The notes: generated by a model from the letters alone, not told the origin. DNA of 52,923 nucleotides, filler included, from Catajapyx aquilonaris (GCA_000934665.2; 2 parts of 2 records of this genome joined end to end with filler, not necessarily neighbours in it), one strand, 5' to 3'. Counted from the first letter of the whole stretch, positions 2,487 to 51,125 are shown. Made by a program: numbers and translations.

Positions 2487-5704
<3,218 letters not shown>

Positions 5705-20595: not shown

Positions 20596-20854
20596 ATAAT
20601 GGATACCCTCTGACAGGCCTCCTTGGGCCTCTTACGGGATCATCTTTTAATTGACAGACGTTAATCATTGCCTGCGCTGTGATAGATTTTTATTGTGGGA
20701 GGAAATGGGAGAACCCCGAGAAAACCCACGCGAACACGGAGATAACCCATCGAAACTCTATCCACATTAGTATCCTCCGTCCGACCCGGGGATTGAACTC
20801 GGGACCTTAGAGGTGGAAGGCTGCGGCACTAACCACTCGGCCACCGTGTTGCCC
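20596..20854 (-). mobile_element. tRNA-derived SINE (family 1, copy 1)
   Basis: Reverse strand reads GGGCAACACGGTGGCCGAGTGGTTAG (A box)...GAGTTCAATCC (B box), then GCGTGGGTTTTCTCGGGGTTCTCCCATTTCCTCCCAC resembling the V-SINE central domain. Closely similar copy at 32622-32895. Confidence 0.85.
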
Positions 20855-21440
20855 TACATATGGAAGATATTCAATATCTGTTAGCTGATATGAAAGACGT
20901 CACATCCCAAGAATTAAGATTATATTCTTTCCTGAATGGTCGCAATGCATCCTGTTACTGCTGCAACGCAACCATTTCCTTCCGTTCATTATTAGAGATA
21001 TGAGCCGCAGGTCAAGAATCTGAATAGCCGTATTCTTTCCTAGTAGTAGTAGAAGCCAATATAATACCGTGTGCTGAAAAACAGGATAAATTAATTCAAC
21101 ACATTATTGTCATCCTAATTTTAATGTCCTAATTTCATCCATGCTGGCATGTAAAATGATGAATAAATGTTTGTATAAATGCTTCACCTCTTTCAGTCAC
21201 ATCTGGTATTTAAAGTGTTATTGTCACATGTAACAGATTTGTGAGATTTCATGCTAAATAATGCAACATTACATGTACGTACTTATATATCAATATGACG
21301 TAGTTAAACACCTAATGTGCATCACAGGAACTTCCTTTCTCAGTGCTCCACTGGCCCAGATATAATCTGGAGCTAAGCTACCCAACTTTTCCTGTTCAGC
21401 GGTTAGCCTTGCAGGAGCCAGTTGCCAGACCTTATCCACA

Positions 21441-26403: not shown

Positions 26404-26503
26404 NNNNNNNNNNNNNNNNNNNNNNNNNNNNNNNNNNNNNNNNNNNNTTAATTAATTAANNNNNNNNNNNNNNNNNNNNNNNNNNNNNNNNNNNNNNNNN
26501 NNN
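26404..26503. other. Assembly gap with artificial TTAATTAATTAA stop linker
   Basis: Two N runs enclosing TTAATTAATTAA, which contains stop codons in all six frames. Confidence 0.9.
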
Positions 26504-26774: not shown

Positions 26775-27243
26775 ATGGAGAGGGCCGCCCGTCATTCGCC
26801 CAACTCCTACGAGTTCCTGCGTAAATATTTCCTAGTTTCATTTCCACCTGACCAGACAACTTATGATCTTCTTTTCCGAACAGCTTTGGCAGTGATGGGA
26901 GGGATATTGTTTTTAATGTTCCTGGCGCTAGCAGCAGTCTTCTGGAAAGCCTGGATTCAGGAGAAGGAGCAGATCTACACCTACTTCAGCTGGCAGAACC
27001 TTTTCCGGTTCCGCATGTTCGCCTACCTGGCTATGCTTTGTAAGAAGAAGCCTGTGCCAGTCATCGCTGAAGATCAGGATTATTTCGGCATCCAAGTTCA
27101 GCCGTCCAAACCCTCTGTAAATATGATCAGCACATCCACCTGGCACAATTCGTGACTCCTTTTTCATTTGTCAATAGGTGTCTTACTCCGTCTTGATGGC
27201 CCAGGAGAATTTCCAACTCGAGAATGACGCCACAAGCGGCTAA
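26775..27243 (+). CDS. Small membrane protein family, paralogue A (114 aa)
   Basis: Exons 26775-26820, 26884-27116, 27178-27243 (intron phases 1, 0). TM LAVMGGILFLMFLALAAVFW; last exon begins VSYSVL; AATAAA at ~27309. Near-collinear with paralogue B. Confidence 0.8.
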
Positions 27244-28029
27244 CGACAAGCCTCTGGAACTCCTTTGTACTCATCAATGAGTTGTAATGGGTGCCATCCC
27301 ATGTCTGCAATAAAGCAGATTTCTGAGAGAAACTTACTTTGGATTTTCTTTCCCTCTATCTGTTTTTGCGCTTCATGAGTCAGATTTTCAGGCCATTTGT
27401 TTTCATTCCGGCAGCTAGCTACTCTGTGGTCCCGTGACTGATGGTTATAAGCAGGTATAAGATCAGTGCACATATTGGAGGTCGCGGAATAACTCTGTGG
27501 TATAGGTTCTGAATACGCCCCTTTCCCCCCAGGGATTGTGTGGGGACATTACGGATGTTCGTTGTATGTTTTTGGGTTGAAATATTGGTTTCTACTTTTG
27601 TTGAAGAAACTTTAAGCAGCCTTACTGTTTGCTTAACTAATTATTATTATTGAACCATGAAACAAGACCCCATTTGCTTAACTGGTCATTACTATGTTGA
27701 AATGGGCGATGTGAGTACTTAATAGATTCAGAGCCTGCATTTTTCACTCATGCAATATGGTGTGCCCGATCTGATTGTACATTCCCAATTGCAATTAAGT
27801 TACCGTTTTATTTAAACAGGTAATCATAATTTATAGGGCAAAGAGGGATGGGGGGCTGCTGCCATTATTATGATTGTGTTTCGCATGTTCAATCCTGACC
27901 CTGAATGCCAATTCGATGTCTTTCACTTTCAGGATATCTTGAGCATGGTATATGCAACAATAATAAGTTATTAATATCATACTTCGTACCATATTATCAT
28001 TACGCCACTATTAAGTGGAGTTTTCACTA

Positions 28030-29685
28030 TACTCCAGGTGGTAAGGGACAAATGGCCCAAACTTTGCATTTTGCGATAAAAGTAAGAAACTCGGTACACT
28101 CTTTCTTTGGACACTTTTGAGCATATCTGGACGTAGGGCCACGATCCCGCTGGATGTCAATTTAGCAGGGTTGCCATATTGAACAGGTGTAATAACCTAC
28201 CGTACCTCATCTACATGAATAGGGAGCTTGTATTCGGTTATAAAGACATGGACTAAATTGATCACATTTGGTCTTTGGACACTTCTGAGCATGTTCAGAC
28301 GTGGAGCCACGATGACTGACCCCGTTGTGGGTCAGTTTCGCCGGGTTGCCAAATCCAACAGACTGTGCAACATGCCTTTATAATATTATTTACATAGCGA
28401 GCTTGCATTCGGTGATAAAGACACGACGAAACTCGCCAAAATTGGTCTTCGGACATTTCTGAACATATCTGGACGTGAGGTCACGATGAGCGACCCCTAT
28501 TACGTGGTTACCATATTGAACAGGTGCAGCATACCTTTACATGAATACGGATCTTGCATTCAGTGATAAAAACACGCAACTAGCCATAATATTGGTCTTT
28601 GGACACTTCTGAACATGTGCAGATATGGGGCCACGATGACCGACCCCACTGGAGGTCACTATTGCAGGGTTGCCATATCCAACATATTGTTCAACATAGG
28701 TTTCTATTTGAATAGCGAGCTTGCATTCGGTGATAAAGACGTGAAACACGGTACACTAGCTCTTTCGACACTTATGAACATATCTGGACGTAGGGCCACG
28801 ATGAGCGACCCCGCTGGAGCTCCCTATTCAAATATAAAAGCGTGTTTCACAGTTTGTTAAATATGGAAACCCCGCGATAGTGATCTCCAGCGGGGTGGGC
28901 CATCGTGGCTCCACGTCCAGGTATGTTCAGAAATGTCCAAAGAACTAATGTACCCAGTTTCACGTCATTATCACCGAATCAAAGCTCCCCAATCAAATAT
29001 AAACGCCGTGATTGACCCACAGCTGGGGCGATCATTGTCGCCCCAATTGCAGACCTGTTCAGAAGTGTCCTAAGACCAATTGTGGAGAATGTCATGTTTT
29101 TATCACCAAAGGCAAGGTCCTTATTCACGTAAAGGTATGCTGCACCTGTTGGATTTGGCAACCTCGCGAAAGTGATCTCCAGCAGGGCCACCCATCGTGG
29201 CCCCACGTCCAAATATGCTCATAGGTGTCCAAAGAACTAGTGTAATTACCGATTTCACGTCTTTGTCACCTAATGCAAGCTCCCTATTTATATTGTCTAC
29301 GTATAGAGGTATGCGTCGGTCATCCATAGTGGCCCCACTTCCGGATATGCTCAGAAGTGTCCAAAGACCGATTGTGGCGAGTTTCATGTTTTTATCACTG
29401 AATACAAGGTCCTAGAGGATGCTGCATGTAACGGGAATCCCACGATGCAGGTAGGTTGATGAGGATCTCTTTCTGCCTCAAACAAAGTGACCGGGCCCAA
29501 ATGTCAAATAGGAAATCCTGTACACTGCACCTGGTAGATATGGAAACCCTGCGAAAGTGACCCCCGGCGGGGTCAGCCATCGTGGCCCCACGTCTAGATA
29601 TGCTCAGAAGTGTCCAAAGAACGAGTGTACCGAGTTTCATACTTTTATCAAAAATTCAAAGTTAAAACACTTAGCACCCGGACTA
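28030..29685. mobile_element. Foldback-like element with two inverted arms of ~150-175-bp tandem repeats
   Basis: About 5 direct units (TTTGGACACTTCTGAGCATATCTGGACGTGGGGCCACGATG...GGTGATAAAGAC) at 28060-28825 and about 5 reverse-complement units at 28860-29662. Outer ends TACTCCAGGTGGTAAG / CTTAGCACCCGGACTA are inverted. Confidence 0.8.
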
Positions 29686-30059
29686 CAACTATGCATGACA
29701 TAGCATCAACGAAGTGCAGGCGTTTTTCGTAAAACACTTTTAGGCCCGTATTCATAATGGACATTCTCAACCCGGGGTTGAGTAACCCCGGGTTGAGAGC
29801 GGGTTGGGGTTAACCCCGGGGTTGAGCCCGATCCGTATGCATAATGTCGAACATCCGCGAAGTTGAGTCGACTCCGCGTTCCAACCCCAGGGCTTACCAG
29901 GCTTGGAAACAGGCGTCCATTTCGTGACGTCACACTACCCAATACGGTACCGTATCGGACGCGACGCTAGCACTCTCACGCGGACGGATCGCGAAACGGC
30001 CCTGTGCTTGGCAAATGAGTGAAAATAACTGATGTCTAACTTACTATTTAATTTCGAAC

Positions 30060-30211
30060 GGTGGAATTTTCGTCGTACTACGAGTTACTGCTAACTTAGC
30101 AGTACATTTGCAGTATTGCACTACACTGGTACTGCTATAAGTTAGAAATAACTAATAGTACGACCCAAGAGTACGACCTCTTCCCACCATGAGTACGACA
30201 AAAATTCCACC
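30060..30211. mobile_element. Small nested inverted-repeat element
   Basis: GGTGGAATTTTCGTCGTACT...AGTACGACAAAAATTCCACC; CTAACTTACTA occurs on both sides (30036, 30212). Confidence 0.55.
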
Positions 30212-30771
30212 CTAACTTACTAACAGAACAGAGGTGGGCACAGCTATCCGAAAAATTAGCTTCTCTAACAGCTAGGCTAATAAGCTAACTAAAAATTCGC
30301 CTTTGCTAAATAGCTAAAGCTAAGGATTAAATCGGGCCCGTTTACGTTAACCTCTTGTACGACCATAAGTATTACGTTGCCGCATAGCTCGTCTGCTACA
30401 TACTGTATACGCAAATGTGCAATTAATACTCAATGACATTAAAGTGCATAATTTCTGCAGTGGACTTGGCCACTTTTGATCTCAGACCCATCACTAGCCA
30501 TTATTGTCATCCAACTTCTGCAGTATATTGTAAAATATGCGCCTGTAAATGAGCTGACTATTGGACCAAATAGCAAGTGCTGACCAGCATCTATTGTACC
30601 GAATAAGCTATAATTAACTCAGGGGGCTGGTTGAGGTAAGATTTTGGGTGAGGAGCAACAGTGACCATTATTTTTGTACTTCATGGCGGGGTGGTACGAG
30701 ACGCATTCTTTTCCTACAAAAATTGTAGAAGGTGTACTGTACATCAGAATACAAATGTAGCCTACTAGCTA

Positions 30772-31181
30772 CAGGGCGTCACAAGCAGGTCACAATTAAC
30801 AGTTACAAATAACAGTTATTTGCGCCATTCATGTAGCAGCTACATCAGCTTCATCGAAAATATTAGCTGCCAATAGCAGCATACATGTAATCAAGCATGT
30901 AATGAATCCTGTCCGGTTGACCTGGAAAAAATACACTGCCCTGTTTTACCCCGCGTGTGGCGCGGGAGTGGCAGCCTTCTTTGCGGACTCCCGGATTGGC
31001 ATTGGTGCCGCATGTGGCATGTGGTTCCAGCAGATTCATTACATGTATGCTGCTATTGGCAGCTAATATTTTCGATGACGCCGACGAGGTAATAGTTCAG
31101 ACGTAGCTGTTACATGAATGGCACAAAATCACTGCTATTTATAACCGTTAAATCGTCACTTGAACTTGGGATGACTCCCTG
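30772..31181. mobile_element. Nested Tc1-like MITE with long TIRs
   Basis: TA-CAGGGCGTC...GACTCCCTG-TA; internal inverted match CATCGAAAATATTAGCTGCCAATAGCAGCATACATGTAAT vs its complement at ~31038-31078. Confidence 0.75.
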
Positions 31182-32057
31182 TATAATTATGTAGCCCACC
31201 CAATAAAATCACTGTCTTTGCATGACTGATGTCAATTTATCAGTGGCCCTGAAATGGCCCGCTTGTCTACAGAGGAAGAACGAGGTCTGCCGCGATCATT
31301 TCGAGCAGGTTCAACACGCAGTCTTTCCGCAGGCGGTATCGTTGCCGGAGGGACGCGTCGCGTCGTCGTACACCTCCATCGGGTTCTCCGGGTCCCTCAG
31401 ACACACGCGTCGGAGGTCTAGCCGCTTCAGAACGGCTTGAATTTCGACCCCTTCCGCCATTTGCAATCGACCTCAACCCCGAGTTCAGATCTGAACCCTG
31501 GTCGAGGACCGGGGTCAACTCCTCGCCCGACTCAACCCCGGATCGCGGGGTTTCAAGGCCATTATGAATACGAACCCGGGGTCAACTCCGCCTCAACCCT
31601 GGGTTCAACCCCGACCCCGCGTTCGAATTTCATTATGAATACGGGCCATAGTGTTTTGCATGAAGGGTTAATATAGCGGTTATTATTTGTAATATAGGTG
31701 TATCTTGACCGTATCTTCAGAGTACGAGTAAGACAAAATCTAGGCGTTTCGGCCTAGCTGGTAGCAAAGGGCTTAACAGGATGACGGCATGACAACTAAC
31801 GCCATGAAGAGAAATAACAACAAAATCCTTGAGTCCAGGGCTCATAAAGATTCCTGTGTGGTGCATCTGCGTATAAATATGCCCAAATTTTGAAAATATC
31901 ATTATATCTTACGTTAGACTTTACTTACCCATTCTAATGTTTTCATTACCTTCAAAACCGTCACCTTGATCAAAAAAAGCAATTAATTTAGTAATTATGA
32001 GAATTATGCCCGTTATAAGACGGGCACTAATTACTAGCATTGAAGGATTTGTTTATA

Positions 32058-32620
32058 CAGGGTGTTTATTGTAACTCTGCAAAGACTTGCAGGGGTATTA
32101 GAGGGGACCAATTCAAGTATTTTTGACCTAGGAACCCGTGTCCGGAAACGCCATCTAGAGGGGGTTCATAGACAAGGAACGGGTGCGCTCAGACGCTTCA
32201 TGCGGGAGGCGCTAGGCGAGCGGACTGTTTTGTTGATAGATGGCGCTCGGATAGTAAACACCGATGCGATGTGCCATAACCTGGCAACAGCAGAGCCGTC
32301 TAGCAACTATAAAGTATGCCTCCTAGGAGATGCGTGAATAGTCAACAGCGATTTTGTTGTTGCCAGGTTATGGCGTATCGCGTTGTTGTTTACTTACAAC
32401 GACGCGATACGCCATAACCTGGCAACAACTGCGCGCCATCTATCAACAAAACAGTCCGCTCGCTAACGCCTCCCGCCTGACGCGTCAGAGCGCACCCGTT
32501 CCTTGTCTGTGAACTCCCTCTAGATGGCGTTTCCGGACACGGGTTCCTAGGTCAAAAATACTTGTCTTGGCCCCCTCTATTACCCCTGAAAGTCTTTGCA
32601 GAGTTACAATAAACACCCTG
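32058..32620. mobile_element. Tc1/mariner-type MITE, almost fully palindromic
   Basis: TA-CAGGGTGTTTATTGTAACTCTGCAAAGACTT...AAGTCTTTGCAGAGTTACAATAAACACCCTG-TA; arms longer than 200 bp. Confidence 0.9.
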
Positions 32621-32621
32621 T

Positions 32622-32895
32622 ATAATGGATACCCCATGATAGGCCTCCTGCGGCCTCTTAGGGGATCATCTTTTCGTGTACCGTCTTTAATCGTTGCCTG
32701 CGCTGTGATTGATTTTGATTGTGGGAGGAAACGGGAGAACCCCGAGAAAACCTACGCTAACATGGAGAGAACCCATCGAAACTCTATCCACATAAGTATC
32801 CTCTTTCCGATCCGGGGATCGAACTCGGGACCTCAGAGGTGGAAGACTGTGGCCCTAACCACTACCACTACGCCACGGTCGCCACCGTGTCGCCC
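32622..32895 (-). mobile_element. tRNA-derived SINE (family 1, copy 2)
   Basis: Aligns along its length with 20596-20854; B box GAGTTCGATCC on the minus strand. Confidence 0.85.
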
Positions 32896-33239
32896 TACAT
32901 AGTATTGAAGAATTGCCTTCGTGCAACCCGGTGCAACCCATTGTTTTCGCCCTTCCAATCATTCCGATGATGTGATGACATAAATACCCCCTCTTCACCG
33001 AGCCTTTTCATTGGATACCAGCTAAGGCTTGGCTTCTCCCAATCAGAGTGCTCTTCCGCATAGTTCAGTGCACGGTTCAGCGCCCTCTGCAGCCTCACTA
33101 CTTCCTACACCCCTGGCGGTCTCAGTGTCACCCAGTCATCCAGGCAACGCTGCTGCACTTTTCATTTCAGTCTTCATACAAGAGAGATCCAGGTCGTCAC
33201 GAGTTATCCGACAAGAGGTCAGCAGTGTTACAGGTTGCC

Positions 33240-33721
33240 ATGGACAGGGGCGTCTCTCATTCGCGTAACTCTCATCATCTGCGTAAGTATTATATCCTAG
33301 TTTCATCTCCACCTGACCAGACAACTTATGGGGCCATGATTTTCTTTTCCGAACAGCTATGGCAGTGATTGGAGTGATATTGTTCTTGATGTTGCTGGCG
33401 ATAGTGATGGCCATCTGTAAAGCCTGGCGTGATCAGAAGGAGCAGATCTACACCTACTTCAGCTGGCAGACCCTTTCCCTATTCCGCATGTTCGCCTACC
33501 TGGCTATGTTTTGTAAGAAGAAGCCTACTGTGCCAGCCATCGCTAATGATCAGGATTATTTCGGCATCCGGGTGCAGCCGACCCAACCCGCTGTAAATAT
33601 GATCAGCACCCCCACCTGGCACAGTTCATGACTGTTTTTTCTCATTTGCCAATAGGTGTCCTACCACATCTTGATGGCCCAGGAGAATTCCCAGCCCGCG
33701 GACGGCGCCACAAGCGGATAA
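33240..33721 (+). CDS. Small membrane protein family, paralogue B (114 aa)
   Basis: Exons 33240-33282, 33357-33592, 33656-33721. TM MAVIGVILFLMLLAIVMAIC; last exon begins VSYHIL; AATAAA at ~33787. Confidence 0.82.
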
Positions 33722-35039
33722 CGACAAGCTTCGGGAACTCCTCTGTACTCATCAATGAGTTGTAATGGGTGCCATCCCATGTCTGCAATAAAGCAGATTT
33801 TTGAGAAACTTACTTTCGGATTCTCTCCCCCCCCCTCCCCTCCCTTCCTTTTGTTTGCGTTTCAGGCCATTTGTTTTCTTTCTGTTAGCTAGCTACTCTG
33901 TTGTCCCGTGACTGATGGTTATAAGCAGGTAAGAGTGCATATTATGGAGGTCGCGGAATAACATTACTCGGTGGTAGGTTCCCATATTTTCCAGGGAATG
34001 AGGGGGCACCACTGATGTTAGTTGTATGTTTTTGGGTTAAGATTCATTTCTTCTTTTGTTAAAGAAAATTGAGACCGCCTTCTGCTTCCTTAGCTAATAT
34101 TTCCAAAAAACAAGACCCCATTTGCAACTGGGAAGTCGCCACGGGACATGATTATGTTGCAATGAGCTATGTGAGTACTAATTGCTTCGGAGCCTGAATT
34201 TTTCACTCTGCGACATGGCGTGCCCCATCTGTTTGTAAATTTCTTATTGCAATTACCGGTTTATTTAAACTGGTGATGATAATATATTTATAGGGAAATA
34301 GGGGTGGGGGTCGGCTGGCAAGGGCAGTTAGAGGGACTTAGAGGTCACTATTACTGTTTGTATACCAGGGATATGTGCTGTGTTGGCCGTTATACAGGAA
34401 GTATGTTGTGATAAAATGCCATTGCATGAGGTCATTGTCTTCCAGGGGAAAAAAACAATACGTGCCGAAGTGAATGAAACCCTGAAAACTGAATTTTTAA
34501 ATATTGCAAATTATTTTTGAAACGCTCGGTTTTTAAGGTTGCCGATTTCGTATTAAATGCCAAAGTATGCAATTTTCAAAATGGTGAACTTTTGGGGAGC
34601 TTTAAATAACAATGTCCAGGCCCCTGGACTTTGCCCAGGAGCGGGGTGGGACAGCAGCAAGGGTGGCCGACATTCGGGGACAACATGGTAGGCATATGGT
34701 GGGGAACGTTTGAGATCCCGGAGGCCCATTAGCAGATGATATTTCATAATCTGTCAAAGTAACTATAAACCTACCTTTGAAGTAACTGATTTATAACAAC
34801 AACAATATACGGTAATAATCCTGGTAGTGCTTCCACTTCAACAACCGGGTATGTCGCAGCCTGGACCATTATTATCTCCATAAACAAGTGTAACGACTTT
34901 GAACCTTGCACCTCGCCACCCACTCACCACAGCCAGTGAACCTGCGGGTTTCTCAAAAAGGTTCAGACATGGAAATGATTCACAGACAGACCCACAGGAG
35001 GCGACAAGAACGTGGTCTGTAATTAATTATGTTCATGTT

Positions 35040-35041
<2 letters not shown>

Positions 35042-35074
<33 letters not shown>

Positions 35075-35110
35075 TCCCTCTCTCTCTCCCTCTCTCTCTC
35101 CCCCCTCTCT
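35042..35110. repeat. (CT)n microsatellite
   Basis: Interrupted CT dinucleotide run. Confidence 0.9.
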
Positions 35111-35709
35111 CCCACTTTACGAAAATTGTATTTTTTGAAGCCAGTTGATGGAAATAACAGTGACAGGGGTCAGTGGGGTACACGAGATAAGTAGGCCACA
35201 GCACGCTGGACATATCAGGTTATGAAACTCGAGATTGATTTGTCCTGCTTTGCAAATCCCAAAGTTTCAGAATCCGAGATGAAAACCGTGAGAGGGTATA
35301 TCTGGCTCTCACGGTGTTATTTAAGAAGGCATGTTCCTTTTATTCGCATTAAATTTCGCAGCCCACTCTCATACCAAAGGTCACAGACTCACATGTACAG
35401 TATCAGAAAAAAAGTGACGACACAGCTTGAAAGGTGGGGCCGCCTTTATCTCATACGGTTATAGCCAATCACAGACGTGGAAGTTAACTGACAGCAAGGT
35501 AGACCAATCGAGGGCCTTGGAAATGACATGCGACAAGTCCATCTGATTCAGGTATGGTTGCATAAAGGCCTTTCGCACGCTGATTAGCTGCATATGTCTC
35601 AAGGCTGTTGTTCAACTCCGCCTTTAGTACCCCCATCAACTACACCGGCCATCATTTCCTACAGTCCAGCCAGAGGCCTCCATTTCTTGTGTTGCTCTCC
35701 AGCAGCAAG

Positions 35710-36317
35710 ATGTCGACCGGATTGGCAGATACAGACATGATCCTACAGATATCCGAGAAGAACAAAAAGTACTATCAGATGGGAAGCGGTAGCCACTATC
35801 TGGGTTTGTAAATCAAAGTGTCACCTCAACCTGACCTGCCAAATTCTGATAACTTATTCTTCTTCCCAGCAGCAGCATCCATTGTGGCCGTACTTCTGTT
35901 CGTCATTTTTGTAGTTCTGACCTGCACCGGTTGTGGATTTTGGATCAGAGTATTCGATCACATTCGTAGATTCTTCATGAATAGCGTACGTCAGCTGTTC
36001 CCTAGGAGTCCTGCCCTCACTATTCTCCAGGAGAACCAAGTAAATATGTGACTCATACCTTCCCGCCTACGCAGTTCATGACTCCTTTTTTCATCCTTCA
36101 GGATGTGGTGTCATACTCGTGGCTGGAGAGGCAACAAAGCAGCGAAGAGATCACAGAAGAGAACCCCCTGGAAGAGATCATCACAGAAGAGAACCCACCG
36201 GAAGAGAACATCCAGGAAGAGAAGGCCCTGGAAGAGAACTCCACAGAAGAGAACCCGCCGGAAGAGAACGTCCAGGAAGAGAAGGCCCTGGAAGAGAACT
36301 CCACAGAAGAGTGCTAA
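35710..36317 (+). CDS. Small membrane protein family, paralogue C (159 aa) with acidic repeat tail
   Basis: Exons 35710-35803, 35870-36039, 36102-36317 (phases 1, 0). TM SIVAVLLFVIFVVLTCTGC; last exon DVVSYSWL followed by EEN-rich repeats; AATAAA at ~36393. Confidence 0.75.
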
Positions 36318-36631
36318 TGCTGGCAGCCCAACAAACCTCATAACAACTTATGGAGTCACCACGCCTCGGAGTATGTGTGTCAGACAATTGCCAATAAACA
36401 TATTGTTGGGCATCTGATTTTTTCTCTCATTTCTAGCGTTTCCGCAGTCAGAGTTTCAGGCCATCTTTTATTTTAGGTGGCTGCTCAGTGGTCCCGTGCT
36501 TGATGATACTTGCAAGCAGGTATGAGAGTGTATTTTGGAAATGTGGACTTGGTAACTGTGGGCTGTAGGAGAGTGATAGTGTCCTAGGCATGGTTGTAGA
36601 AGACTCAGGTTAGGTCACTCCCCACCCACCC

Positions 36632-36904
36632 CCTGCCGAGGGGTTTTGCAGTGGGTGCTCACCTGAGACCGCCACGAGACATTTCCCAGAGCATTTATGT
36701 GGCGACCCTACCGGACTAAGGCTGAACTTTATAGGTACGAAAGGGAAGCTCTACATGCTGGCCCAACATGGCCGCCGGCATGTAGCCCTCCCCTTTCGTA
36801 ACTATAAAGTTCAGCCTTAGTCCGGTAGGGTCGCCACATAAATGCTCTGGGAAATGTCTCGTGGCGGTCTCAGGTGAGCACCCGCTGCAAAACCCCTCGG
36901 CAGG
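36632..36904. repeat. ~273-bp near-perfect inverted repeat (long hairpin)
   Basis: CCTGCCGAGGGGTTTTGCAG...CTGAACTTTATAG mirrored by CTATAAAGTTCAG...CTGCAAAACCCCTCGGCAGG. TAGTGTCC is repeated directly at 36577 and 36927. Confidence 0.9.
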
Positions 36905-36958
36905 TGATAAGCCCAGAAGATAGGGGTAGTGTCCGTGGGCTAGTCCTAGGGTAAGCGC

Positions 36959-37880
36959 TGTCACGTGTGACATTTTACTTGGATCGTCCCACGGATTGAA
37001 TATGGAATGGAATTGTCGATAAGATTTTTTTTGGTGAGTGCCTGGCTTTGCATAGCCAGTGAGTGGTGTTACTCCAGCGGGGCTGCTTGTGCCCTGTTTT
37101 CGCTGGGGCCACTCATAATCTTTGCCCTTGGGATTGTACGGAGTGTGTTGTACTCGTACGAGTATTGGGGAGACAGTCGGTAGCTCGGAGTGTTTTCTCC
37201 GTATCTGTTCCGCAGTGTGGGAAGGTCACGTCGGTGTGGTGAAATTGTACGCGCTGTCTTTCTTTTACCTTCCCCCCCCCCCCCTTTTTTTCCCTGGTTG
37301 GGCGTGGTGTGTTCTCGGCACCGTTGTTTGCACGGTCGGTGACATGCGGCCAAGTGATGCGTGGAATTCACGCCCCGAATAGTGCGACGTTCACGGAGAT
37401 GTCGTCCCACTTGGAAGTTGGACCTACACGAGAGATTCGGAGAGGAATCATTGAAGTTGGTCAAATGGTGCGTGTTGGAGTTTACCCGCGCTAGTGCGTT
37501 CCTTTTTTGGGGGGTTCGTTTCACTTCAGAAATATTCAGTGAATACGAGACTTGAAGTTGTTTGAAACTGAAAGCACCTTTTGGTGCTGTTAATCCTACC
37601 CAGGACAGTGTTAACCGGTGTGGACGCTCGTTGTGAGTAGGCCTATACAGTTTGGGAGTGTGGTTCAGGCCTGTTAACATTGTGAGTTTAACCTACCTAG
37701 CCGTCCGTTCATATCTCCTAAACTATTTGTGAACCCTTTTGATTTGGACTTTGTCCTCTCGCCTGAACTTTTTTTTTTGTATGTGTGAGAATAAAGATTT
37801 TCTCCAGGAAGCACGTTTAGCATGTCACTCTCTGCTTATTATAGATGCTATTGAGCCTCTCTCAAATTAACTTCGTGACA
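36959..37880 (+). mobile_element. Solo-LTR-like segment
   Basis: Begins TGTCACG and ends CGTGACA (TG...CA inverted ends), AATAAA at ~37790, and truncates a SINE at its right end. No TSD seen. Confidence 0.5.
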
Positions 37881-37965
37881 GTCAGGATCGGCGGCCCCGG
37901 GAATCGAACCCAGGACCTCCCGATTAGCAGTCTGGCTCCTTAACCACCACGCCAACAGGCTTCGG
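37881..37965 (-). mobile_element. tRNA-derived SINE head fragment (family 2)
   Basis: Minus strand TGGCGTGGTGGTTAAG...GGAGGTCCTGGGTTCGATTCCCGGGGCCGCCGATCCTGAC matches 51139-51181. Confidence 0.7.
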
Positions 37966-40900: not shown

Positions 40901-41884
40901 TTCTGGGCGTAAATGACCATCCGAGTTGCAGGAGTAATCCCTTACGTGACAGATCAAATCCCATAAGAAAAACAAGGTGGAGATGGCGTCATTTTACGGA
41001 TGTCTCGTGCAGTCGGCGAAGGCGAGCTAGGACTTGGAGCCTTGTCAACTCACACCAATCATCAAGGCGTCATCAAGCCATTCTAGTTCTAGCAACTTAT
41101 CATCATTAGATGGAAACAACATTATGACTGCTAGCAGTGCTGCAGGCTAATCAAGCCCAACTGAGGTGAAAGGTCATCTCGCGGCAGGTTGCACTATAAA
41201 CCACACCAAGACAGTAATGTAAATGGGGAAAAGTTTTCAACTCTATTGATATGAAATTCATGAAGTGGCACGTCATCTTTCTGGTGTGCATTGGAGTTCA
41301 TATAATTTTCTACTCGGGAGATGGAAAAATATATAATTTCCCCTATTATTCATATTTTTTCCTTTCTGCGACCCTTGTCTCTTGTAGGGGGCATAAGGCA
41401 TAAAGATCACAAAGACGTTATGAGGAGAAGTGCTCGTTACTTACATTATTTTCGTCTTATAGGGTAGGCTACATGGTCATCTTAATAACAGAGAATATAT
41501 ACACATTATTATATGTTTTCAACGTTAACAAAAAAGGAAATCAGCTACAAAATGTCGTGTCTGTCCATATTAACAAACAGAGGTTGCATCTTTTCGGGTG
41601 GGCACTGTAATTGTTTTGTCCCCAATTGGTCATAAATTTTGTAATACAAAGATAAGTTCACTCTCCAGTTGCACCATTCGCAAGTCTCTCCTGCATCATT
41701 CACCTTGATAATGTAGATTCCTTAATTTTCATATGTATGTAGCGTTAAGTTATACATTAAATTTGTTCACACACACACACTGCCCAGAGCCGAGAGTGAT
41801 CAGACGTGTGAATAAGCTGCTGCACTGAAGATAACATCCGGGCCCAATCGGACCCAATCGGACTCACCGTCAGAACCAGCCGAG

Positions 41885-42724
41885 ATGGCCTCAAAAGAAG
41901 AAATCAAGACCTTACTTGATGATCTCAAGAAGGACATGATGGAACAGTTAACCTCAAAATTGGATCAGACGATGAGACAACTGGACACGAAGTGGTCAGT
42001 AGCGGTGGAAGAAATTCAAACGGGGCAACATAGTTTGGTGACCCAATTGGAAGCAGCCAACGCCCGTATTACCGAGCTACAGAAGACACAGGGAGTGTTA
42101 GTGAAGAAGATAGACGAGGACGAAAACAAAGCACGACGGAATAACCTAATTTTCCACGGTCTACAGGCGGAAGAACCATTGGATTCCTGGAAACAGGTTG
42201 ACAGCACATGTGCCCTTTGAAACTCTACATATTCTGGTGAGTCATGGAGTTGGTACTTAGCTATAAAGGTGCGTAAAGACCTCTTACGCACCTTTATAGC
42301 TAAGTACCAACTCCATGACTCACCAGAATATGTAGAGTTTCAAAGGGCACATGTGCTGGGACGCCCCAGGAGGGGGGGCCCATTGATAGCCGCATTTTAA
42401 AGATCCAAAGATAAGGAGACAATACTAGGAAGAGCAAGGAATCTTAAAGGCACGAATCTATCGATTAATCAGGACTATTCAGCACAAGTGCGTATGACCC
42501 GCGACAAACTACTACCCTTCCTACGGAGGGCTCGCGAAGAGGGCAAGAAAGCAACGTTGAAGTTTGATCAACTGATGATTGAAGGCACGCGCTTTCAACT
42601 CAATACAGAGGGCGGAGTGGATCAGGTGACATACAACGCTGAGAGGCCCTCTAAGGAATACCCGAAGAGGCAAAGGTCTTCCCCAGGTGTACAGCAGGAC
42701 CCCAAGAAAAAGGCGACGAAATAG
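41885..42724 (+). pseudogene. LINE ORF1 (coiled coil plus RRM-like), disrupted
   Basis: Coiled-coil N-terminus, RRNNLIFHGL, FQRAHVLG, LKGTNLSINQDYS. Interrupted by a 75-bp inverted insertion (42202-42276) and an in-frame TAA at 42398. Confidence 0.85.
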
Positions 42725-42946
42725 AGACAACACGACGAGATACGGGAGCGGGCGGAATCAATGGGAGTTATGGTCCATGGGATAGAAGAAGAGGAGGGAA
42801 GTAGCTGGCCAGCGATACAGGAGGTGGATCAAAGCCCGAGGAAACACCCGGACCCAAGGAAGAAGAATCAAAGCAACACACGTGGTGGAAGAGGAAGCAG
42901 GCAATGAAGGAGGGAAGGCGAGTGGCACAAGGTCAACTCCGAAGAA

Positions 42947-45900
42947 ATGGTACAGCCTAACAAAAACACAGTTCAAGAAATAACAACAATTATTTATGGA
43001 TCCCGGAACATTACTGGAAGCCAGGAGGTCGAAGTGATAAGTGAGTGCGCGAAAGTTCTGGATATCTCAGGGTATTACGGTGCTGTTGAAACCCAGCTCT
43101 TGAACCAGAGTGTCGCCCAAGAAGTGAGTACCAAATCATCAGTTCGATTAGGCAGCACACCACAAATTTTGCAAAAAGTTAGAAACCCCAAGTTGCAGTG
43201 CCCTCAAAAAAACTATTATCCACTTCAATTCTCCTTTTGGAATATAGCAGGCTTGAAAATAAACAGTGCATGGTACATAATGCATTCAAAATTAAATGCA
43301 CCTAAAATAGTGGGTTTCACAGAGACCTGGCTTGAAGAAGAGTATAATCCAGTGGACAGTGTAAAGAATTATTTATCATGGCACTCACTAGCAAATATGA
43401 GTTCTCATTTTGGTCATGCATCTGGTGGGTTATGGCTAGCCATTGACAAGACCTTAAAACCTGAACTAATTTCAAAATCTGAACATTATATTTGTGTTGC
43501 TATTGTTTATGTGAATGATATGAAGTATTTGGTACAATTAGTTTATCTTTCACCACTGTTAAACGAACACACTTTCCGACAAACATTGGAAGTCCAAGCA
43601 ACAACCGCGCTTGAAACGGGTAATCCCTTAATTATTATAGGTGACTTCAATGCTCGAATTGCGGATTGCCCAGGCTATCAAATTGAAGAAATAACATCAC
43701 TATTAGAAAACAATACAAGAATCTCCCGAGACAAAAATATAAACAAGAACGGCAAAGTCCTGATTGACTTTTTAGATACATATTCTTTTTTTGTAATGAA
43801 CGGAAATATGCCATCAGATTCCCCAGGGTCATACACTTTCATCGGAGGCCAAGGTCAAAGTGTGGTAGATTTTTGTTTGCTATCGCAGAACATAGCGGAA
43901 CTAGCTGTAGATTTGATAACGACACCTAGCCAAGACTCAGATCATACTATGTTGACAGCCCTTTTGGATTTCCCTCAAATGGAGACACCCAAAATAAAAA
44001 TATCGAAACAGGTGTTAACATATCCCGAGCAAGGTCTGGACTTTCTGAAAGATGATATGAATAAATCATTTGCAAATGCTATAAATAATGCCCAGATAAT
44101 GGAAATCTCAGAAATAAATGAGAAGGCAAGGCAATTACTAACTGATTACGGTATTTTGCACAAGATGACTATAAGTAATAAAAACCATGCCAGAAAGCAC
44201 TCTTCCCCATGGTTCGATGCGGATTTAACTTATGAAAGATTGATATTAACGGAAACGCTTAAACAATGGGAAAGGAATCCATCAGATGAGGCCAGGGCCG
44301 ATTATTCAAGTAAGAGGAAAATCTACAAAAAATTAGCAGCCGCAAAGAAAAAAAAGTTTTATTCGGAAACATTAAGAATAAAGCTCTTAGACACAAGAGA
44401 CCCGAAAAAGTTTTGGGAGGTGGTGAAGCAATCCAAAAAATACAAAACCCAGATAAATATAGACAAAGAGGAATGGTGGAATTATATAAGTAAATTGCAT
44501 ACAAATAGCGATCAGGGAGTTTCACATATAGTCGCAATTGATTTCTACCTCGAGGTACCCTCGCTGGATCAGCAGTTATCGAGAGCTGAATACGATACAG
44601 TGATAAAAGGACTAAGATTAAAGTCATCCCCAGGCCCAGACATGATCTCGAATTCCTTAATCGCAGTACAATCAGAAAACTTTCATGAAGCGATTTATAA
44701 GCTAATAAAGTTCTGCTTAGAGACTAATTCCTTTCCCGAAGGGTGGGATCAGGCTAAATTATGCCCTATATACAAGTCGGGAGATAAGGAAGATCCAGCA
44801 AATTTCAGGCCCATTGCACTTTTCAATAATACTTTTAAAATCCTTACAAAAATGATAAATAACAGAATAAAAAACTGGGCAGAATCTAACAATATATTCC
44901 CGGAATGGCAAGCAGCTTTCAGAAAGGGAAGGAGTTGTGCAGACCACTTATTAACTTTGCATATTTTAATTCAAAAATATACAAATAAACCTAAGGGAAA
45001 ATTATATGCAACGTTTATTGATCTAACGAAAGCTTTTGACTCTATCGGACATGACATGTTACTACAAAAGCTATACAAGCAAGGACTTAGTCACAAACTA
45101 CTACAGTTGATTAAAGCAATTTATGCCAAAATGGAAATAGTAGAAGATTACCAATCCATCCGCACGATCAAAATAACGAAAGGGGTACCACAAGGGGATT
45201 CATTAAGTCCAACACTCTTCAATCTATTCTTGGCGGATCTAGATATTTTTATGCAAACCAAAAATTGCAAAGGTGTAAATTTTGATGGTAGTCATCCAGA
45301 CATTATGGTACTGGCTTATGCAGATGATTTAGTTCTCTTGTCGGACAACCCATTATATTTACAACAGAACTTGAACGCATTAAGAAACTTTTTTGATCTA
45401 CACGAATTACAAATAAATTTAAAAAAGACAAAAATTATATGCTTTCGGAAAGGTGGCAGACAACCAGATAAGATATTTTATTGGAATTTGGAGAAGATAG
45501 AACCGGTATCGTCCTATACATACTTAGGCATTCCTTTCAAAAGTTCGGGAAAATTTATTTTAGCGGCGGAACAAATGAAGAAAAAGCCCTGGCAGCAATA
45601 AATGGATTATGGCCTACCTTGATAAATTTAAAATTAAGAGACCTTAAAGTAGCCATGCAATTGTTCCACGCCCATATTGCCCCAATCATAATGTACAATG
45701 CCCACATTTGGGGCCCAAACCATAATAAACCAAATTCAAATTGTATTTATAAAAAGGTTTCTTGGACTTCCAAAAAACACAGCGAACTATTTTATTTACC
45801 TAGAAACAGGAATACTACCACTTACAATAACACTAGTTAAAACGATCGCCAGGAATATAGAAAAACTGATTAATACAGGTAACCACAGACTGGTAAAGGC

Positions 45901-46474
45901 AGCCTACAATTATGTTGAAAAAATAAACCAAAGGAACCCTACAATGAAAGAAAACTGGATTTTTGCTTGTAAGTTCTTAGTGCAAAAGAATGAGCTGAGT
46001 TGGAAGGATCTCTTTATAGATTTATCTCAAGCCACGGAAACCCTAACTACAAATATAAAAAGAAACACGATTAGTATGCTACAACATACCACTAGATATT
46101 CACACTACAAAGACATTAAAATGAGTTACGAGCAGGAAAGTTATCTAGCGTTTGGCCTACCAATAATTCAGACACGAATAATAACAAATATAAGGAACAA
46201 TTCAAAATACGTACGCCTGAAACAGGATTCAATAAAACTATATCATGAAGAATATTGCGAATGGTGTAACATGAATGAACCTCTGTCAGCACACCACATA
46301 ATATATGATTGTTTATACTTTGTGACACCTAGGAAAAATTACCTACAAGACCTGCCCACATTCCCCCCAACAAGCTATCATCTCCTTTTCCAAAATATAC
46401 CAAAGCAACACATATTTTCTCTATTTAAATTTTTCCAAAACGTGAACAAAAGAATTAATTTTTCAAAATACTAA
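42947..46474 (+). pseudogene. LINE ORF2 (AP endonuclease, reverse transcriptase, C-terminal CCHC), frameshifted
   Basis: WNIAGL, TETW, GDFNAR, SDH (APE); GVPQGDSLSPTLFNLF, YADD (RT); CEWC...HIIYDC. Split across three overlapping ORFs (42947-45601, 45481-45840, 45698-46474). Confidence 0.92.
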
Positions 46475-48683
46475 ATATGTTAAGGGTCATATGTTTATGT
46501 ATATAAAAAAACTAAAATTGGAAATTGGAAATTTGGCAGGGTATGTGTCCCCCGAAACAGGACGCAATGTACTGAGAAAGGGGTATGAAAATAAAAAATA
46601 AATAAAAAATAAAATAAATACATTAAATTTGTTACAATTCTTAAGATTGTGATGGGCAGCTCATAATTCACAAATACTTTTTCCGATTATCATTAAATTC
46701 CGTCAATTATTATACAATAAAAGGAAAAAGGTAGAGGGATAAAATGTCCGATTTACAAGAAACATTTCCGTTGTAGACGTCAACCATTATCAGGAAGCAA
46801 ATCAGTGCAGAGCGTTGTGCAGAGTGTATATACTGAGGAAATGGCTTTGACGCATCTTAGTCGGCGTCTGGCGTAAACACCTTCACTAGCATAAGAGATG
46901 TAATCTACTCTTCTTTAATTTATTTTTCCATTTCCGGTTTCATCTGACCTACGAATGCACTTGTGACTCAGACTGTCTGCCCAGAGTCTGCGTAACTCTT
47001 GTTACAGGACCACTGATAACATTTTATCAACTACACTACAACGCAACGGTAGCCTTTTTATACATATTGCATTTGTGTATTTTATAAAGCACGTTACATT
47101 CAGCATCCTGGATGACTATGTTGTTTAGTATACAGAATATTATTTCATAATGAATCAGGCTTACTTCTAAGGTGAACCCATGGGAACGTAATGCTGTATA
47201 CTGTGTAAAAGTAGTGGTAGCATTTGGCCTTTGCAGAGTCGTTACAAAGGTATTAATTAGCATTAATCAAAGAGTGCATTTTGCCATATCCAGTATCGCG
47301 AATACAACCTGGTACACTGTCATGGCAATTATAACTTCAACAAACTGAAATATCATAGTAACACATATATTGTAAATTAATATGAAGGTGACGTATAAAT
47401 GCCACAATATTAATTTTTATACTTCGTGTATGAACGATACCTCTGTACAGTATATACAGAGGTATCGTTTATGCTGGGGGAATCCTTTGGTGCAAGAAGT
47501 TCACCATAGAAGTTTATCTGAATCATTATGAAACGCCAGTTCAGGCAACTACTACCGTACATGAACCTCCCCATTTATAGGACCGTTTTTAATGAACATA
47601 TTAGTATTTTCTGTGTATAGCTCTCCAAAAATAGACGACAATTATTCACTTAGCTTCCCCACTCCCATAAAATTATTTTCCAAATTGTACAATTCATTTG
47701 TGTTAATTAAGATGTGCACCACACTGGTGCACACCTTAATTAACATTGTCACACCTCTTGATCCTATAGGTATGGTATATGATCAAAGCTGGACCATATT
47801 TCGTTCTTTCGTCGACAGTATAGTCCATCAGGACACTGTCAATGACTGACAGGATGATGCGCCTGAGACACTGGCCGGAAACATTGTAGAGAGAGTTAGG
47901 CCGTGCTGGGTCCATCCAAAAAACTACCCCTTTCCTTGGGCTACCATTTCTTAGTCTACCTCTACACACTATAGTCTCGGACTGAGGTGGTTTAGAATTG
48001 TTTCAAGTTTCTCCTGAATGAGTGTTTTACTATTAAACCCAAGTAGTGGACTAAAAGTTAACCCTGCTGCCTGCTGGTCTGTGTTTCTAAATGTGACCCA
48101 ATGAGTGCAATCCTTGACGTGACTGCTGTGGGGAATGGTGATGCATAATTATAATATTATTTTTATTCGATTTTTGATGCATTTTAAAATTATTGACCGA
48201 TTCTGGAATTAGGCCATAAACTCTGGGTGAGACTGCATAGCAACATTGCCATTTACTGAGTCATCGAAGACACATCGAGGACATCGACGACACATACGCC
48301 AGGCCTCTCAGTCGGAAAGAATGGAAACAAAAAAGGAAGTGACGACACAGCTTGGAAGGCGGGACCGTATTAGTATCATAAATCTGACAAACACACACAC
48401 AGCAGTGAATTGGCTGCAAGGTAGACCAATCGAGGGCCTTGAAAATGACGTGACGACACGAAGAAGTGCACAAATCTATCTATTTGGATCTGATTAGTGC
48501 ATTTGTTTCTAGGCCAAGATTGAACTCCGCCCCCAGCGGCCATTGTTTCTTACGGTTCATCCAAGAGCTTCTTCCAGTTCTGACCAAGTCCTCCAAGTGC
48601 AACAACCACCTTCTGGACACTACAGAGCAGAGCAGAGAGAGAGAGAGAGAGACTACAGAGCAGAGCTTCGTCGAGAAATCAAG

Positions 48684-49239
48684 ATGGACGAAGAAACCAC
48701 CATGAGCGTCTACGCCTTGTACGGCATCAGGGGCGAGCGTCGCAACCTGACTGCCATCGAACAACATCCACTGCTGAAAATACCGCTGATGCTTCTCGGT
48801 TGGTATTTGCAAGTGTCACCCACCTAACCTGTCCAACTCTGAACTCTGATTTTCTATTCCCAACAGGATTCTTGATGATTGGCTTGACTATCTGTGGATT
48901 GTTCATGCTGTTGATGTTTAGCTTCTACGAGTTTCTGATGCAGAATGCGGCTCGAATCGAAGCCTTAGCCCGGAGACACGAAGCAGCTTACCAGATCTAC
49001 CTCCGGATGGCAACTGTGTTCAACTGGACCATTGATGACCCTGATCGTGCTATCCCCGCTCACATTCAGGACTTGCCTGACGACGATGAGATGCCCGAGC
49101 AGGAGATCGTACATGTATGACCCACCACCTTTCCTCTCCCCCCGACACAGTTCATGACTTCTTTTTTATCTTTCAGGAGATACGATACTCCGAAATTCTC
49201 ACTCAGGCCAACAATGATGGAGGGTACTTCCTGGGGTAG
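48684..49239 (+). CDS. Small membrane protein family, paralogue D (139 aa)
   Basis: Exons 48684-48798, 48867-49108, 49177-49239 (phases 1, 0). TM LMLLGFLMIGLTICGLFMLLMFSFY; last exon EIRYSEI; AATAAA at ~49303. Promoter and intron sequences are shared with paralogue C. Confidence 0.75.
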
Positions 49240-51125
49240 TGGCGGACACCGCAACAAGTGCATTCAGCATTGATTTGCATCGATGTGTGTGTCACAAGTG
49301 CCAATAAAGCTGATTTTTGGCCAACCGATATTTCTGTATAATTTCTGTTGTTTCCTGGGTCAGTATTTCAGGTCATCTTTTCATTAGGTGGTTGATCAGT
49401 GGTCCCGTGCCTGATGATAGTTGTAAGTACAGGTAAGAGTGCATTTGGAGGTCGTGATATAACTCAGTGGTAGTGTAGGTGTTTCAAGCCCAAAATATTA
49501 ATCCCAGGGATATGGATAATACAGTAGGCTACATTTCCATAGGATAGTAAGGAAAGCAATCAATGACTTGCTATGTCATGCACACAGGTCGTACTGTATA
49601 ACAATCTCATTTTCGTCCTTCTGCCCTTGCCCCCTTCTCCTCCCTCCCTCACCCCATCAATTTTATTATCACCTGGTTTAATTATATAGAACTCGAGAGA
49701 TAATTGCAATAAATGATATTGAGAATATTAATATAACTGGGGCATATGGCATTGCATGGATAGTAAATGCAGGATATGAAGTGCATCAAAAATTATAACA
49801 TATACTCATGGCTATGATGAATTAACCTATACCTCTTCAACTTGTGTAAAGAAAATAACAACAACAATATCGACCACATGATCGTGGTTTTCCACACATT
49901 GCGCTGTTAGAAAAAAAAGGTTTTCGACATCGAAGGCCTACGATGAAGTTATTTCACGATCCCAAAATGCACTCTTATATGTTTTAGCTCGTTAAATGTC
50001 TTCTTCCATGACCTCGCTGAAAATAATCACTGTCAGAGTTGCCCTCAAACTTTTAACCAGCTAAAGGTGAGTCACTTATTCTATTTTCCTCCTCGGACTG
50101 TAATATAATCATCGCAACAAGGCCAAGGCCCTCCTCGTCCTCGGTCCCCCTAAGCTACCCCACTACGGACACCGATAAGCTTCCACCAAAAAGAAGCCTT
50201 GGGTACTTGTATTTTAAATTTACTAAAACAAGACATATAATAATTTTAATCAAATAGCACCCGGTATAATTTTATCACACATATTCAGGCATGTCATCAG
50301 CACAATTGTGAAGCAGTTGAGATAGCAGAGGTGTGCAATAAACTTAATGATGATTACATAAATTGTGATTTCTACGTTTCAAATATTAGATAAACAAAAC
50401 TCTGAACTAATCAGGGTTCACAGGGATATTCCCCCCCCCGTGTAATTTTCGGTGTAACGTCACGTCGCGTCGGAAGCTGGTCAAAAAACGACACCTTTCC
50501 GCCTTATTTTTATTATAAAAAATTACGCCGTGCAGATATTATAGGAAAACAACTCGCACATAATATGTTACGTAGCTTTAAACAAGCTTTTGAACGATAT
50601 ATAACATTATTTTTGGGGACGATCTTCCTGGGAGTTGTTTTGAGTCAAACACAGGGCTTTATACATTAAATAAACGGATTCAATGGTTAAAAATATGAAT
50701 ATAGTGTGAGCTACTTTTATCTGCATTTATAAGTAACCACTATTGCAGTTACAGTATTTTAGTTTAGTCACTATTTTTAGGTATTTTAAAGTATTGGCAG
50801 AAAATTGAGGCTCGGTAAGCATTTGCCGTACAGGTAATTTTAGTCATTTTTGCATTAACAGTTACTTTTGACTTCGTCTCTATAATAATTATTTAGTTGT
50901 TTTGATAGCCAATCACAATTTATATTCTGTTTTATTAACATGATGTGCAACTTATGTGTTGTTTACGAGTCAACCACTACTTGTATCAACTTGAGCGTTT
51001 ACTGCTATTTTAGCTCAATATTCTTGTTGTCCTCTATTTCCTATATAGTTTTTAAAAGGTTGGTTCTTTTTAAACCGTTTTCCGGCAATGTTTTAGTCAC
51101 TTTTGTATTATTATGGCATAAATCC

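Follow-up and report, generated by a model that had tools for sequence, protein, structure and literature searches.

We analysed a stretch of 52,923 bases of DNA from Catajapyx aquilonaris (the window) and found that each of its four small paralogous genes, here called A to D, is followed beyond its poly(A) signal by a conserved block of about 130 nucleotides (nt). At the centre of each block lies a cassette of 40-45 nt with an acceptor-like sequence before it and a splice donor after it. Our leading interpretation, to which we assign a probability of roughly one in three (0.35), is that each gene has in this block a genuine alternative 3' exon of the skipped-terminal-exon type; we hold just as tentatively that it is a selectively maintained, splice-competent mini-exon belonging to each gene unit. 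The anatomy of the block, its conservation and its consequence for the reading frame are solid observations, and an isoform switch is a plausible and fairly conventional interpretation of them.

The four genes lie on the plus strand between 26.7 and 49.5 kilobases (kb), have the same three-exon build and were modelled from conserved splice signals and open reading frames (ORFs). Exon 1 consists of an ATG plus 14-38 codons, ends in phase 1 and is followed by an intron of 63-74 nt. Exon 2 encodes a hydrophobic segment and most of the tail, ends in phase 0 and is followed by an intron of 61-68 nt. Exon 3, the stop codon, a short 3' untranslated region (UTR) and an AATAAA close each of the four genes. 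For gene A (26775-27314) exon 1 covers 26775-26820, exon 2 26884-27116 and exon 3 starts at 27178, with the stop ending at 27243 and AATAAA at 27309-27314; its introns of 63 and 61 nt have phases 1 and 0. Gene B (33240-33792) has exon 1 at 33240-33282, exon 2 at 33357-33592, exon 3 from 33656 with the stop ending at 33721, and AATAAA at 33787-33792. For gene C (35710-36398) the corresponding positions are 35710-35803, 35873-36039, from 36102 with the stop ending at 36317, and 36393-36398, and for gene D (48684-49308) they are 48684-48798, 48867-49108, from 49177 with the stop ending at 49239, and 49303-49308. The exon-2 ends of these models (27116, 33592, 36039 and 49108) are the very positions from which a preliminary description of this DNA had predicted junctions into the cassettes. 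The products of A, B, C and D have 114, 114, 158 and 139 residues, respectively, each with a single hydrophobic segment that is preceded by 16-36 residues.

The blocks, whose limits are approximate, are all located on the plus strand, and the cassette coordinates given in the preliminary description match the sequence exactly in all four paralogues. Block A (27371-27508) contains TTTCAG/G at 27390-27391, the cassette at 27415-27454 and the donor CAG/GTATAA at 27455, and about 50 nt after the donor are conserved. Block B (33845-33980) has its cassette at 33889-33928 and the donor CAG/GTAAGA at 33929. In block C (36439-36569) the cassette occupies 36477-36519, followed by the donor CAG/GTATGA at 36520, and shows two tandem in-frame stops. 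In block D (49351-49480) the cassette occupies 49388-49432, followed by the donor CAG/GTAAGA at 49433; here we observed a second GTAAGT 9 nt upstream and three tandem in-frame stops. The cassettes are therefore 40, 40, 43 and 45 nt long (A-D) and begin 100, 96, 78 and 79 nt after the end of AATAAA, so the spacing reported earlier is borne out with a measured range of 78-100 nt. The donors lie 127-146 nt after the start of AATAAA. A polypyrimidine stretch with AG before the cassette and CAG/GTA after it are present in all four copies, as had been claimed. Read in phase 0, the phase of the exon-2 donor, each cassette also gives the predicted eight codons followed by TGA, namely LATLWSRD, LATLLSRD, VAAQWSRA and VVDQWSRA. 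The shared stop is not in itself beyond chance, given the homology of the four copies and given that stops are common in stretches of 40 nt.

The cassette and the gene occur together. The core of 17 nt, TGGTCCCGTGNYTGATG, was found four times in the window when up to 3 mismatches were allowed, always at a cassette and always on the plus strand; shuffled sequences contained 0.47 occurrences on average and none of 100 shuffles reached four. The intron-2 motif of the family also has exactly four occurrences, and thus cassette and gene are linked one to one. The idea that the block is found only next to family members stands as far as the window, which is the scope of all our copy counts for cassette and family motifs: all four copies adjoin family genes and none lies elsewhere. 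A search of an index of other DNA stretches likewise retrieved no sequence resembling the block.

In order to compare the conservation of the different parts of the gene units we aligned each segment globally and contrasted the identity of the A/B pair to C or D with a shuffled A-versus-C null. The coding exons were found at the shuffle level: exon 1 showed identities of 0.33-0.38 (shuffle 0.37), exon 2 of 0.50-0.62 (0.50) and the coding part of exon 3 of 0.27-0.55 (0.25). Similar behaviour was observed for the spacer after AATAAA with 0.50-0.54 (0.49), the 100 nt beyond the block with 0.51-0.58 (0.53) and the 3' UTR, where 0.57-0.65 is near the shuffle values; for these three non-coding segments the shuffle values were about 0.49-0.54. 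In contrast, the cassette reached 0.69-0.72 (shuffle 0.57), which upholds the claim that it is better conserved than the main coding exons. Identities were also raised in the 30 nt before the cassette with 0.67-0.73 (0.59) and in the approximately 40 nt after the donor with 0.58-0.78 (0.52). Conservation thus extends beyond the cassette of 40-45 nt, and the conserved unit is the whole block of about 130 nt. Both short introns, which the preliminary description did not mention, are conserved as well as the cassette, with 0.68-0.70 (0.56) for intron 1 and 0.66-0.76 (0.58) for intron 2, and together with the block they can be aligned across all four genes. Within the pairs the cassette identity was 0.84 for C and D and 0.97 for A and B. 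A self-BLAST of the window gave a consistent picture: A and D could be aligned nowhere but in the block, and C and D in three stretches, of which the block was one. Both introns of about 65 nt keep conserved 3' halves, with CACAGTTCATGACT in intron 2 and ACCTGACC in intron 1.

These identities have to be read against the relatedness of the copies: the number of comparisons that are independent is only about three, namely A versus B, C versus D, and the first pair versus the second. A and B arose by recent duplication: in the self-BLAST 26536-27864 matches 33026-34320 with 77.5% identity over 1.3 kb, and the synonymous divergence (dS) between them is 0.22 with a ratio of non-synonymous to synonymous divergence (dN/dS) of 0.86. 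Despite this ratio the ORFs of A and B differ by in-frame indels only. C and D are old, with exon-2 protein identities to A of 22% and 17%, respectively, and synonymous sites that are saturated or nearly so. The small number of comparisons and the youth of A and B leave some room for a non-functional relic, in which chance splice-like signals of an ancestral unit would have been kept alike by gene conversion or by chance, and the equal conservation of the introns means that local homogenisation may account for part of the signal. We nevertheless regard a relic as very unlikely. When the A/B pair is compared with C or D, the adjoining spacer, 3' UTR and downstream flank are at the shuffle level and the block is not, conversion would need to affect the same 130 nt every time, and the splice signals have outlived indels. 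The block is also not a decayed copy of a family exon or of an upstream region. An origin from intron 2 plus exon 3, suggested by SYSVV in another frame of A and B, was rejected as the motif is absent in C and D. When each block was locally aligned to its own gene, none of the four stood out, with 51, 157, 88 and 267 of 300 shuffles scoring at least as high. A relation to the upstream leader regions was rejected as well: only one of the 16 block-versus-upstream comparisons exceeded a z-score of 3 (3.1).

The splice signals of the cassette are comparable to those of the genes themselves. We measured the acceptor strength as the number of pyrimidines in 17 positions and the donor strength as the number of matches to the U1-complementary consensus CAGGTAAGT over 9 positions. 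The cassette acceptors have 12-14 pyrimidines followed by CAG or TAG, and the eight constitutive acceptors have 12-16. The cassette donors match the consensus at 6, 8, 7 and 8 positions (A-D) and the eight constitutive donors of the same genes at 4-7, so that not all of the cassette donors are stronger (the one of A has 6). In all four copies both signals are kept despite indels and substitutions close by: there is a 5-nt insertion after the donor in A and a 2-nt insertion before the donor in D, and the pyrimidine tracts differ. A well-conserved small exon with conserved flanking intron is the usual signature of a regulated alternative exon.

Several observations weigh against the block as an alternative 3' exon. 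Among the 24 nt that would be read as coding, the numbers of variable sites at codon positions 1, 2 and 3 are 2, 5 and 2, and the conservation does not end at the stop but covers about 50 nt of the supposed intron as well. There are also further conserved AGs upstream of the cassette, namely TTTCAG/G in all four copies (16-23 nt upstream) and GTCAG in three of the four, which makes the start of the exon and hence its tail uncertain. Starting from TTTCAG/G the tails would be AICFHSGS in A, AICFLSVS in B and VIFSLGG in D, each followed by a stop, and C would have an open read of 20 codons. On the downstream side we found no conserved partner acceptor for the cassette donor. Only A and B, the recent duplicates, have a good acceptor 66-78 nt downstream, and the candidates in C and D are weak and fail a test for 9 pyrimidines in 13 positions. 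A scan after the cassettes that scored AATAAA and ATTAAA only revealed no such signal at a conserved distance: the first one follows at +623 nt in B (34552), +1270 nt in C (37790) and +275 nt in D (49708), and there is none within 1.5 kb after A. Finally, the constitutive introns measure 61-74 nt, so an acceptor 279-437 nt away would be expected to lose strongly to the nearby one of exon 3.

The lack of coding-type constraint together with the conservation beyond the stop indicates that what is conserved is a nucleotide signal. Its invariant core, GTGGTCCCGTG..TGATG, spans the stop. The indels among the four copies all occur after the shared TGA and none in the preceding 24 nt. The peptide of eight residues is itself probably irrelevant. 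Such a pattern would be expected of a cis-acting element that never enters the mature mRNA, with the strong U1 site and perhaps other protein-binding motifs (GTGGTCCCGTG, TGATG) tuning cleavage and polyadenylation or termination, or with the block serving as a 3' enhancer or insulator of each array unit. The conservation is at the nucleotide level and blind to frame and stop, the donor is the best-kept and strongest splice-like signal although neither a partner acceptor nor a poly(A) signal is conserved with it, and the distance between AATAAA and donor varies within a narrow range. U1 bound downstream of a poly(A) signal is described as able to inhibit cleavage (PMC5071671). However, an element of this kind leaves unexplained why a pyrimidine tract and AG are kept 40-45 nt before the donor in all four copies although their sequences differ, and our comparison by eye with RUNX, Su(Hw), CTCF and CCAAT motifs was inconsistent among the copies. 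We consider it unlikely.

The same splice could also be made for another purpose. An unproductive transcript would lower the full-length output through decay, nuclear retention or poor translation, and its tail would be incidental. This agrees with a peptide that is unconstrained next to splice signals and flanks that are constrained, and with an exon conserved above the coding exons, as in the poison exons of splicing-factor genes. Like the cassette, those poison exons are small, contain a stop and have intron flanks conserved above coding sequence; they differ in being internal to the coding region of splicing regulators and in triggering nonsense-mediated decay (NMD) via downstream junctions, whereas the cassette lies past the 3' end of fast-evolving orphan genes. 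The preliminary description had argued that a stop less than 50 nt before a junction generally escapes NMD. This is the rule of the exon junction complex in vertebrates and does not carry over to an arthropod: in cultured Drosophila cells premature stops are reported to be recognisable without introns or splice junctions (PMC1756896), so that the argument fails and the recognition of such stops need not depend on exon junctions. On the other hand, the truncated protein would retain the membrane segment and a tail of 50-80 residues and could well be stable, and an unproductive transcript appears quite unlikely to us.

As the donor needs a partner somewhere, the cassette might instead be an exon of another transcript, either a leader spliced onto the next paralogue (A to B, B to C, C to D) in a read-through or polycistronic-type arrangement, or a repeated exon of a non-coding RNA spanning the cluster. 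Each cassette does lie upstream of the next family gene, and plausible acceptors are present just before the ATGs of A, B and C. A coding linker is excluded by the lengths of 40, 40, 43 and 45 nt and by stops in several frames, tblastx showed no conserved exon or ORF downstream of the cassettes, and there is no cassette in the 26 kb upstream of gene A. Moreover, a separate conserved block carrying a CCAAT-like motif lies upstream of every one of the four genes, and such a transcript is distinctly improbable. We also rejected the cassette ATG as the start of a downstream gene, given that the distances from ATG to donor are 14, 14, 17 and 19 nt with differing phases and that B stops after 6 codons.

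For C and D the upstream block on the plus strand covers 130 nt at 35406-35535, matching 48330-48458, is located approximately 200-300 nt before the ATGs and holds GACCAATCG and TGACGACA. A comparable block extends from 26536 in A, where it holds CCCAATAAG, and from 33026 in B, where it holds CCCAATCAG. The C/D block is probably the promoter or leader of each gene; a CCAAT-box promoter is suggested by the motif alone. Inside this block GCAAG/GTAGAC could also be a donor. Two runs of 44 Ns (26404-26447 and 26460-26503) about 270-370 nt before the ATG of gene A mean that the upstream region of A is incomplete.

A further group of explanations concerns small non-coding RNAs that would be carried along with each gene copy, such as a small nucleolar RNA, a mirtron, or an RNA similar to small nuclear RNAs or spliced leaders. 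A UGAUGA is present in C and D, a U-rich stretch resembling an Sm site follows the donor and is clearest in C (AUUUUGG), and a pyrimidine tract with AG about 100 nt past AATAAA recalls the downstream genes of trans-spliced operons. This reading is close to refuted. The preliminary description had named Rfam as the means of excluding a non-coding RNA, and Rfam gave no match at the gathering score in the whole window, so the block is not a known structured RNA. In E-value mode the only match on the block was SNORD83 at 27392-27446, with 16.5 bits against a gathering score of 35 and an E-value of 2.4. The folding z-scores of the four blocks of 116 nt were +1.01, -0.30, -0.60 and +0.34 (A-D) and those of the four putative downstream introns +1.45, +0.91, -0.61 and +2.26, without a hairpin. 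Together with the Rfam result this range (lowest -0.60 in the blocks and -0.61 in the introns, up to +2.26) led us to reject a mirtron or another structured RNA. There is also no stable fold, no in-register D box and no tRNA, and in A, B and D the run resembling an Sm site has imperfections.

Several other identities of the block found no support. ARAGORN found no tRNA, which speaks against a tRNA relic and lends no support to an origin from a tRNA-derived short interspersed element (SINE). By eye, CTCAGTGGTAG resembles the A box of tRNAs. Pairing of intron 1 or 2 with the block in the manner of the Dscam docking and selector sequences was dismissed on duplex-energy z-scores of -1.13 to +1.01. 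On the minus strand we saw by eye no conserved ORF or good splice signals, and the 5-nt indel between A and B breaks any frame. A metagenome scan with CAGTGGTCCCGTGNNTGATG returned 19 loci, 14 of which share the flanks of one bacterial coding region, two are the same TARA sequence and three are singletons. None of them matches the block beyond 29 nt and we regard all 19 as chance matches.

Under the alternative 3' exon reading, exon 3 would follow exon 2 in most transcripts, which would have their 3' end at the proximal AATAAA and encode a tail whose last exon starts with [VI]xYxx[LI]. If polymerase escaped the proximal cleavage, the cassette could be recognised via its acceptor and its unusually U1-complementary donor, and the exon-2 donor, which is in phase 0, would be spliced to it. 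With a stop after at most 8 codons, the product would keep the N-terminus, the membrane segment and the exon-2 tail and lose all of exon 3 including the tyrosine motif. We infer the existence of this cassette-joined RNA, the choice of AG, the 3' end of the RNA and any difference in signalling or sorting between the two proteins. U1 at the cassette donor may in addition restrain the proximal poly(A) site, which would couple both choices. The long terminal repeat (LTR) at the 5' end of human immunodeficiency virus 1 (HIV-1) with its major splice donor has a similar layout, with a proximal poly(A) signal and a strong 5' splice site little more than 100 nt downstream. For this LTR the reference list of PMC5071671 names Ashe et al. 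1995 and 1997. Unlike in the HIV-1 LTR and in skipped-terminal-exon systems, we found no conserved distal poly(A) signal or partner acceptor here. The more far-reaching idea, that a U1-bound mini-exon past the poly(A) site toggles all paralogues together between a tail with the tyrosine motif and a tail-less form by silencing the proximal poly(A) site, seems distinctly doubtful.

The consequence for the protein follows from the position of the motif. Exon 3 opens with [VI]xYxx[LI] in all four genes: VSYSVL in A (residues 94-99), VSYHIL in B (from residue 94), VSYSWL in C (from 90) and IRYSEI in D (from 121). Downstream of the membrane segment, these first residues of exon 3 are the sole match to [SIVL]xYxx[ILV], so joining exon 2 to the cassette would delete the motif. 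In gene D an extra match occurs at residue 57, beside the membrane segment. The constant position in all four genes marks exon 3 as a separable motif module. The preliminary description had labelled the motif an ITIM (immunoreceptor tyrosine-based inhibitory motif); the match to the motif holds in all four genes, but the same residues also fit a YxxPhi sorting signal and the proteins have no recognisable ectodomain, so the label holds for the pattern only. The counts of Lys and Arg in the 15 residues on either side of the hydrophobic segment are 2/2, 2/3, 3/3 and 1/1 (A-D), and these flanking charges leave the topology undecided.

The four genes form an orphan family without a relative in the protein resources searched. 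A Pfam scan that covered exon 2 of each gene and, for C, also exon 3 had no match above a curated cut-off. Word-index protein searches retrieved no relative when queried with the second exons of A and D or with the ORF of C that spans intron 2 and exon 3, and a HMMER profile of exon 2 of A and B had no match at E-values up to 0.001 against 1.84 billion representatives. The sequence data suggest that the proteins evolve rapidly or diversify on a scaffold of conserved gene structure. A reading in which these small orphan membrane proteins evolve fast and their genes preserve a non-coding switch more strictly than the protein sequence is a distinctly unlikely one. Gene C differs from the other three genes in its exon 3, where 36150-36311 holds 2.6 copies of a 60-nt repeat that are 92% alike and encode an acidic EENxxEE tail.

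The window is animal DNA, containing conserved housekeeping genes and a non-LTR retrotransposon. By domain matches we identified a MYST-family acetyltransferase (zf-MYST, MOZ_SAS) at 3683-5165 on the plus strand, importin alpha (IBB plus Arm repeats) at 8418-10227 on the minus strand and a FAM69/PIP49-type kinase domain at 15645-16601 on the plus strand. The non-LTR retrotransposon (41816-46474) lies between C and D and has a long reading frame, open for the most part, with domains for an endonuclease and a reverse transcriptase. Just upstream of A and on the same strand, 21731-22096 and 22445-23311 contain an ORF matching the Na/K-ATPase beta chain (PF00287, E 5e-07) and then a Ser/Thr-rich ORF with three repeats of 126 nt that are 99% identical; together they may form a gene similar to that of the beta subunit with an exon of mucin type. 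Upstream of A (20595-20860) and of B (32621-32901), outside the A/B duplication unit, there is a repeat of about 270 nt with 84% identity, which may be a SINE-like element. Between A and B, 28060-29650 is dense in direct and inverted repeats of about 80-440 nt with 68-86% identity.

A choice between two tails is known from other receptors. KIR transcripts come in forms with and without an ITIM, and CEACAM1-L and CEACAM1-S differ by a small alternative 3' exon. CEACAM1-L is described as the ITIM-bearing splice form (PMC5387134), and isoforms of NKp44 with and without an ITIM are reported (PMC13072323). If the cassette is used, the genes described here would resemble CEACAM1, NKp44 and KIR in that one gene yields either a long tail of ITIM type or a very short tail via a small 3' exon. 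Those receptors have large immunoglobulin (Ig) ectodomains and documented recruitment of SHP-1/2, whereas here only 16-36 residues precede the membrane segment and no Pfam domain was found in the exons scanned. Our predicted alternative exon also lies beyond the normal poly(A) signal. In arthropods, cytoplasmic-tail variants of the shrimp PmDscam are reported in which tail exons including ITIM-type motifs are alternatively spliced (PMC6851185). Dscam, however, is a huge Ig and fibronectin type III (FNIII) receptor with internal cassette exons, and here the genes are tiny orphans with the cassette after the terminal exon. If real, the block would plausibly add an orphan arthropod family to the known ITIM-plus/minus and skipped-terminal-exon systems.

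If the cassette is not used, the block would still be a well-delimited conserved element of the 3' flank with a strong U1 site and would be a convenient natural system for testing the control of poly(A) sites by U1 in an invertebrate. If it is used, duplication and rapid protein divergence would have left a splicing and polyadenylation switch untouched, selection would seem to act on the choice of isoform and not on the peptide, and the family would provide an arthropod case of an on/off tyrosine-motif tail outside Dscam. Should the joint toggling of all paralogues be true, it would be a counterpart, in an invertebrate and made of unrelated components, of the pairs of activating and inhibitory isoforms found among vertebrate immunoreceptors.

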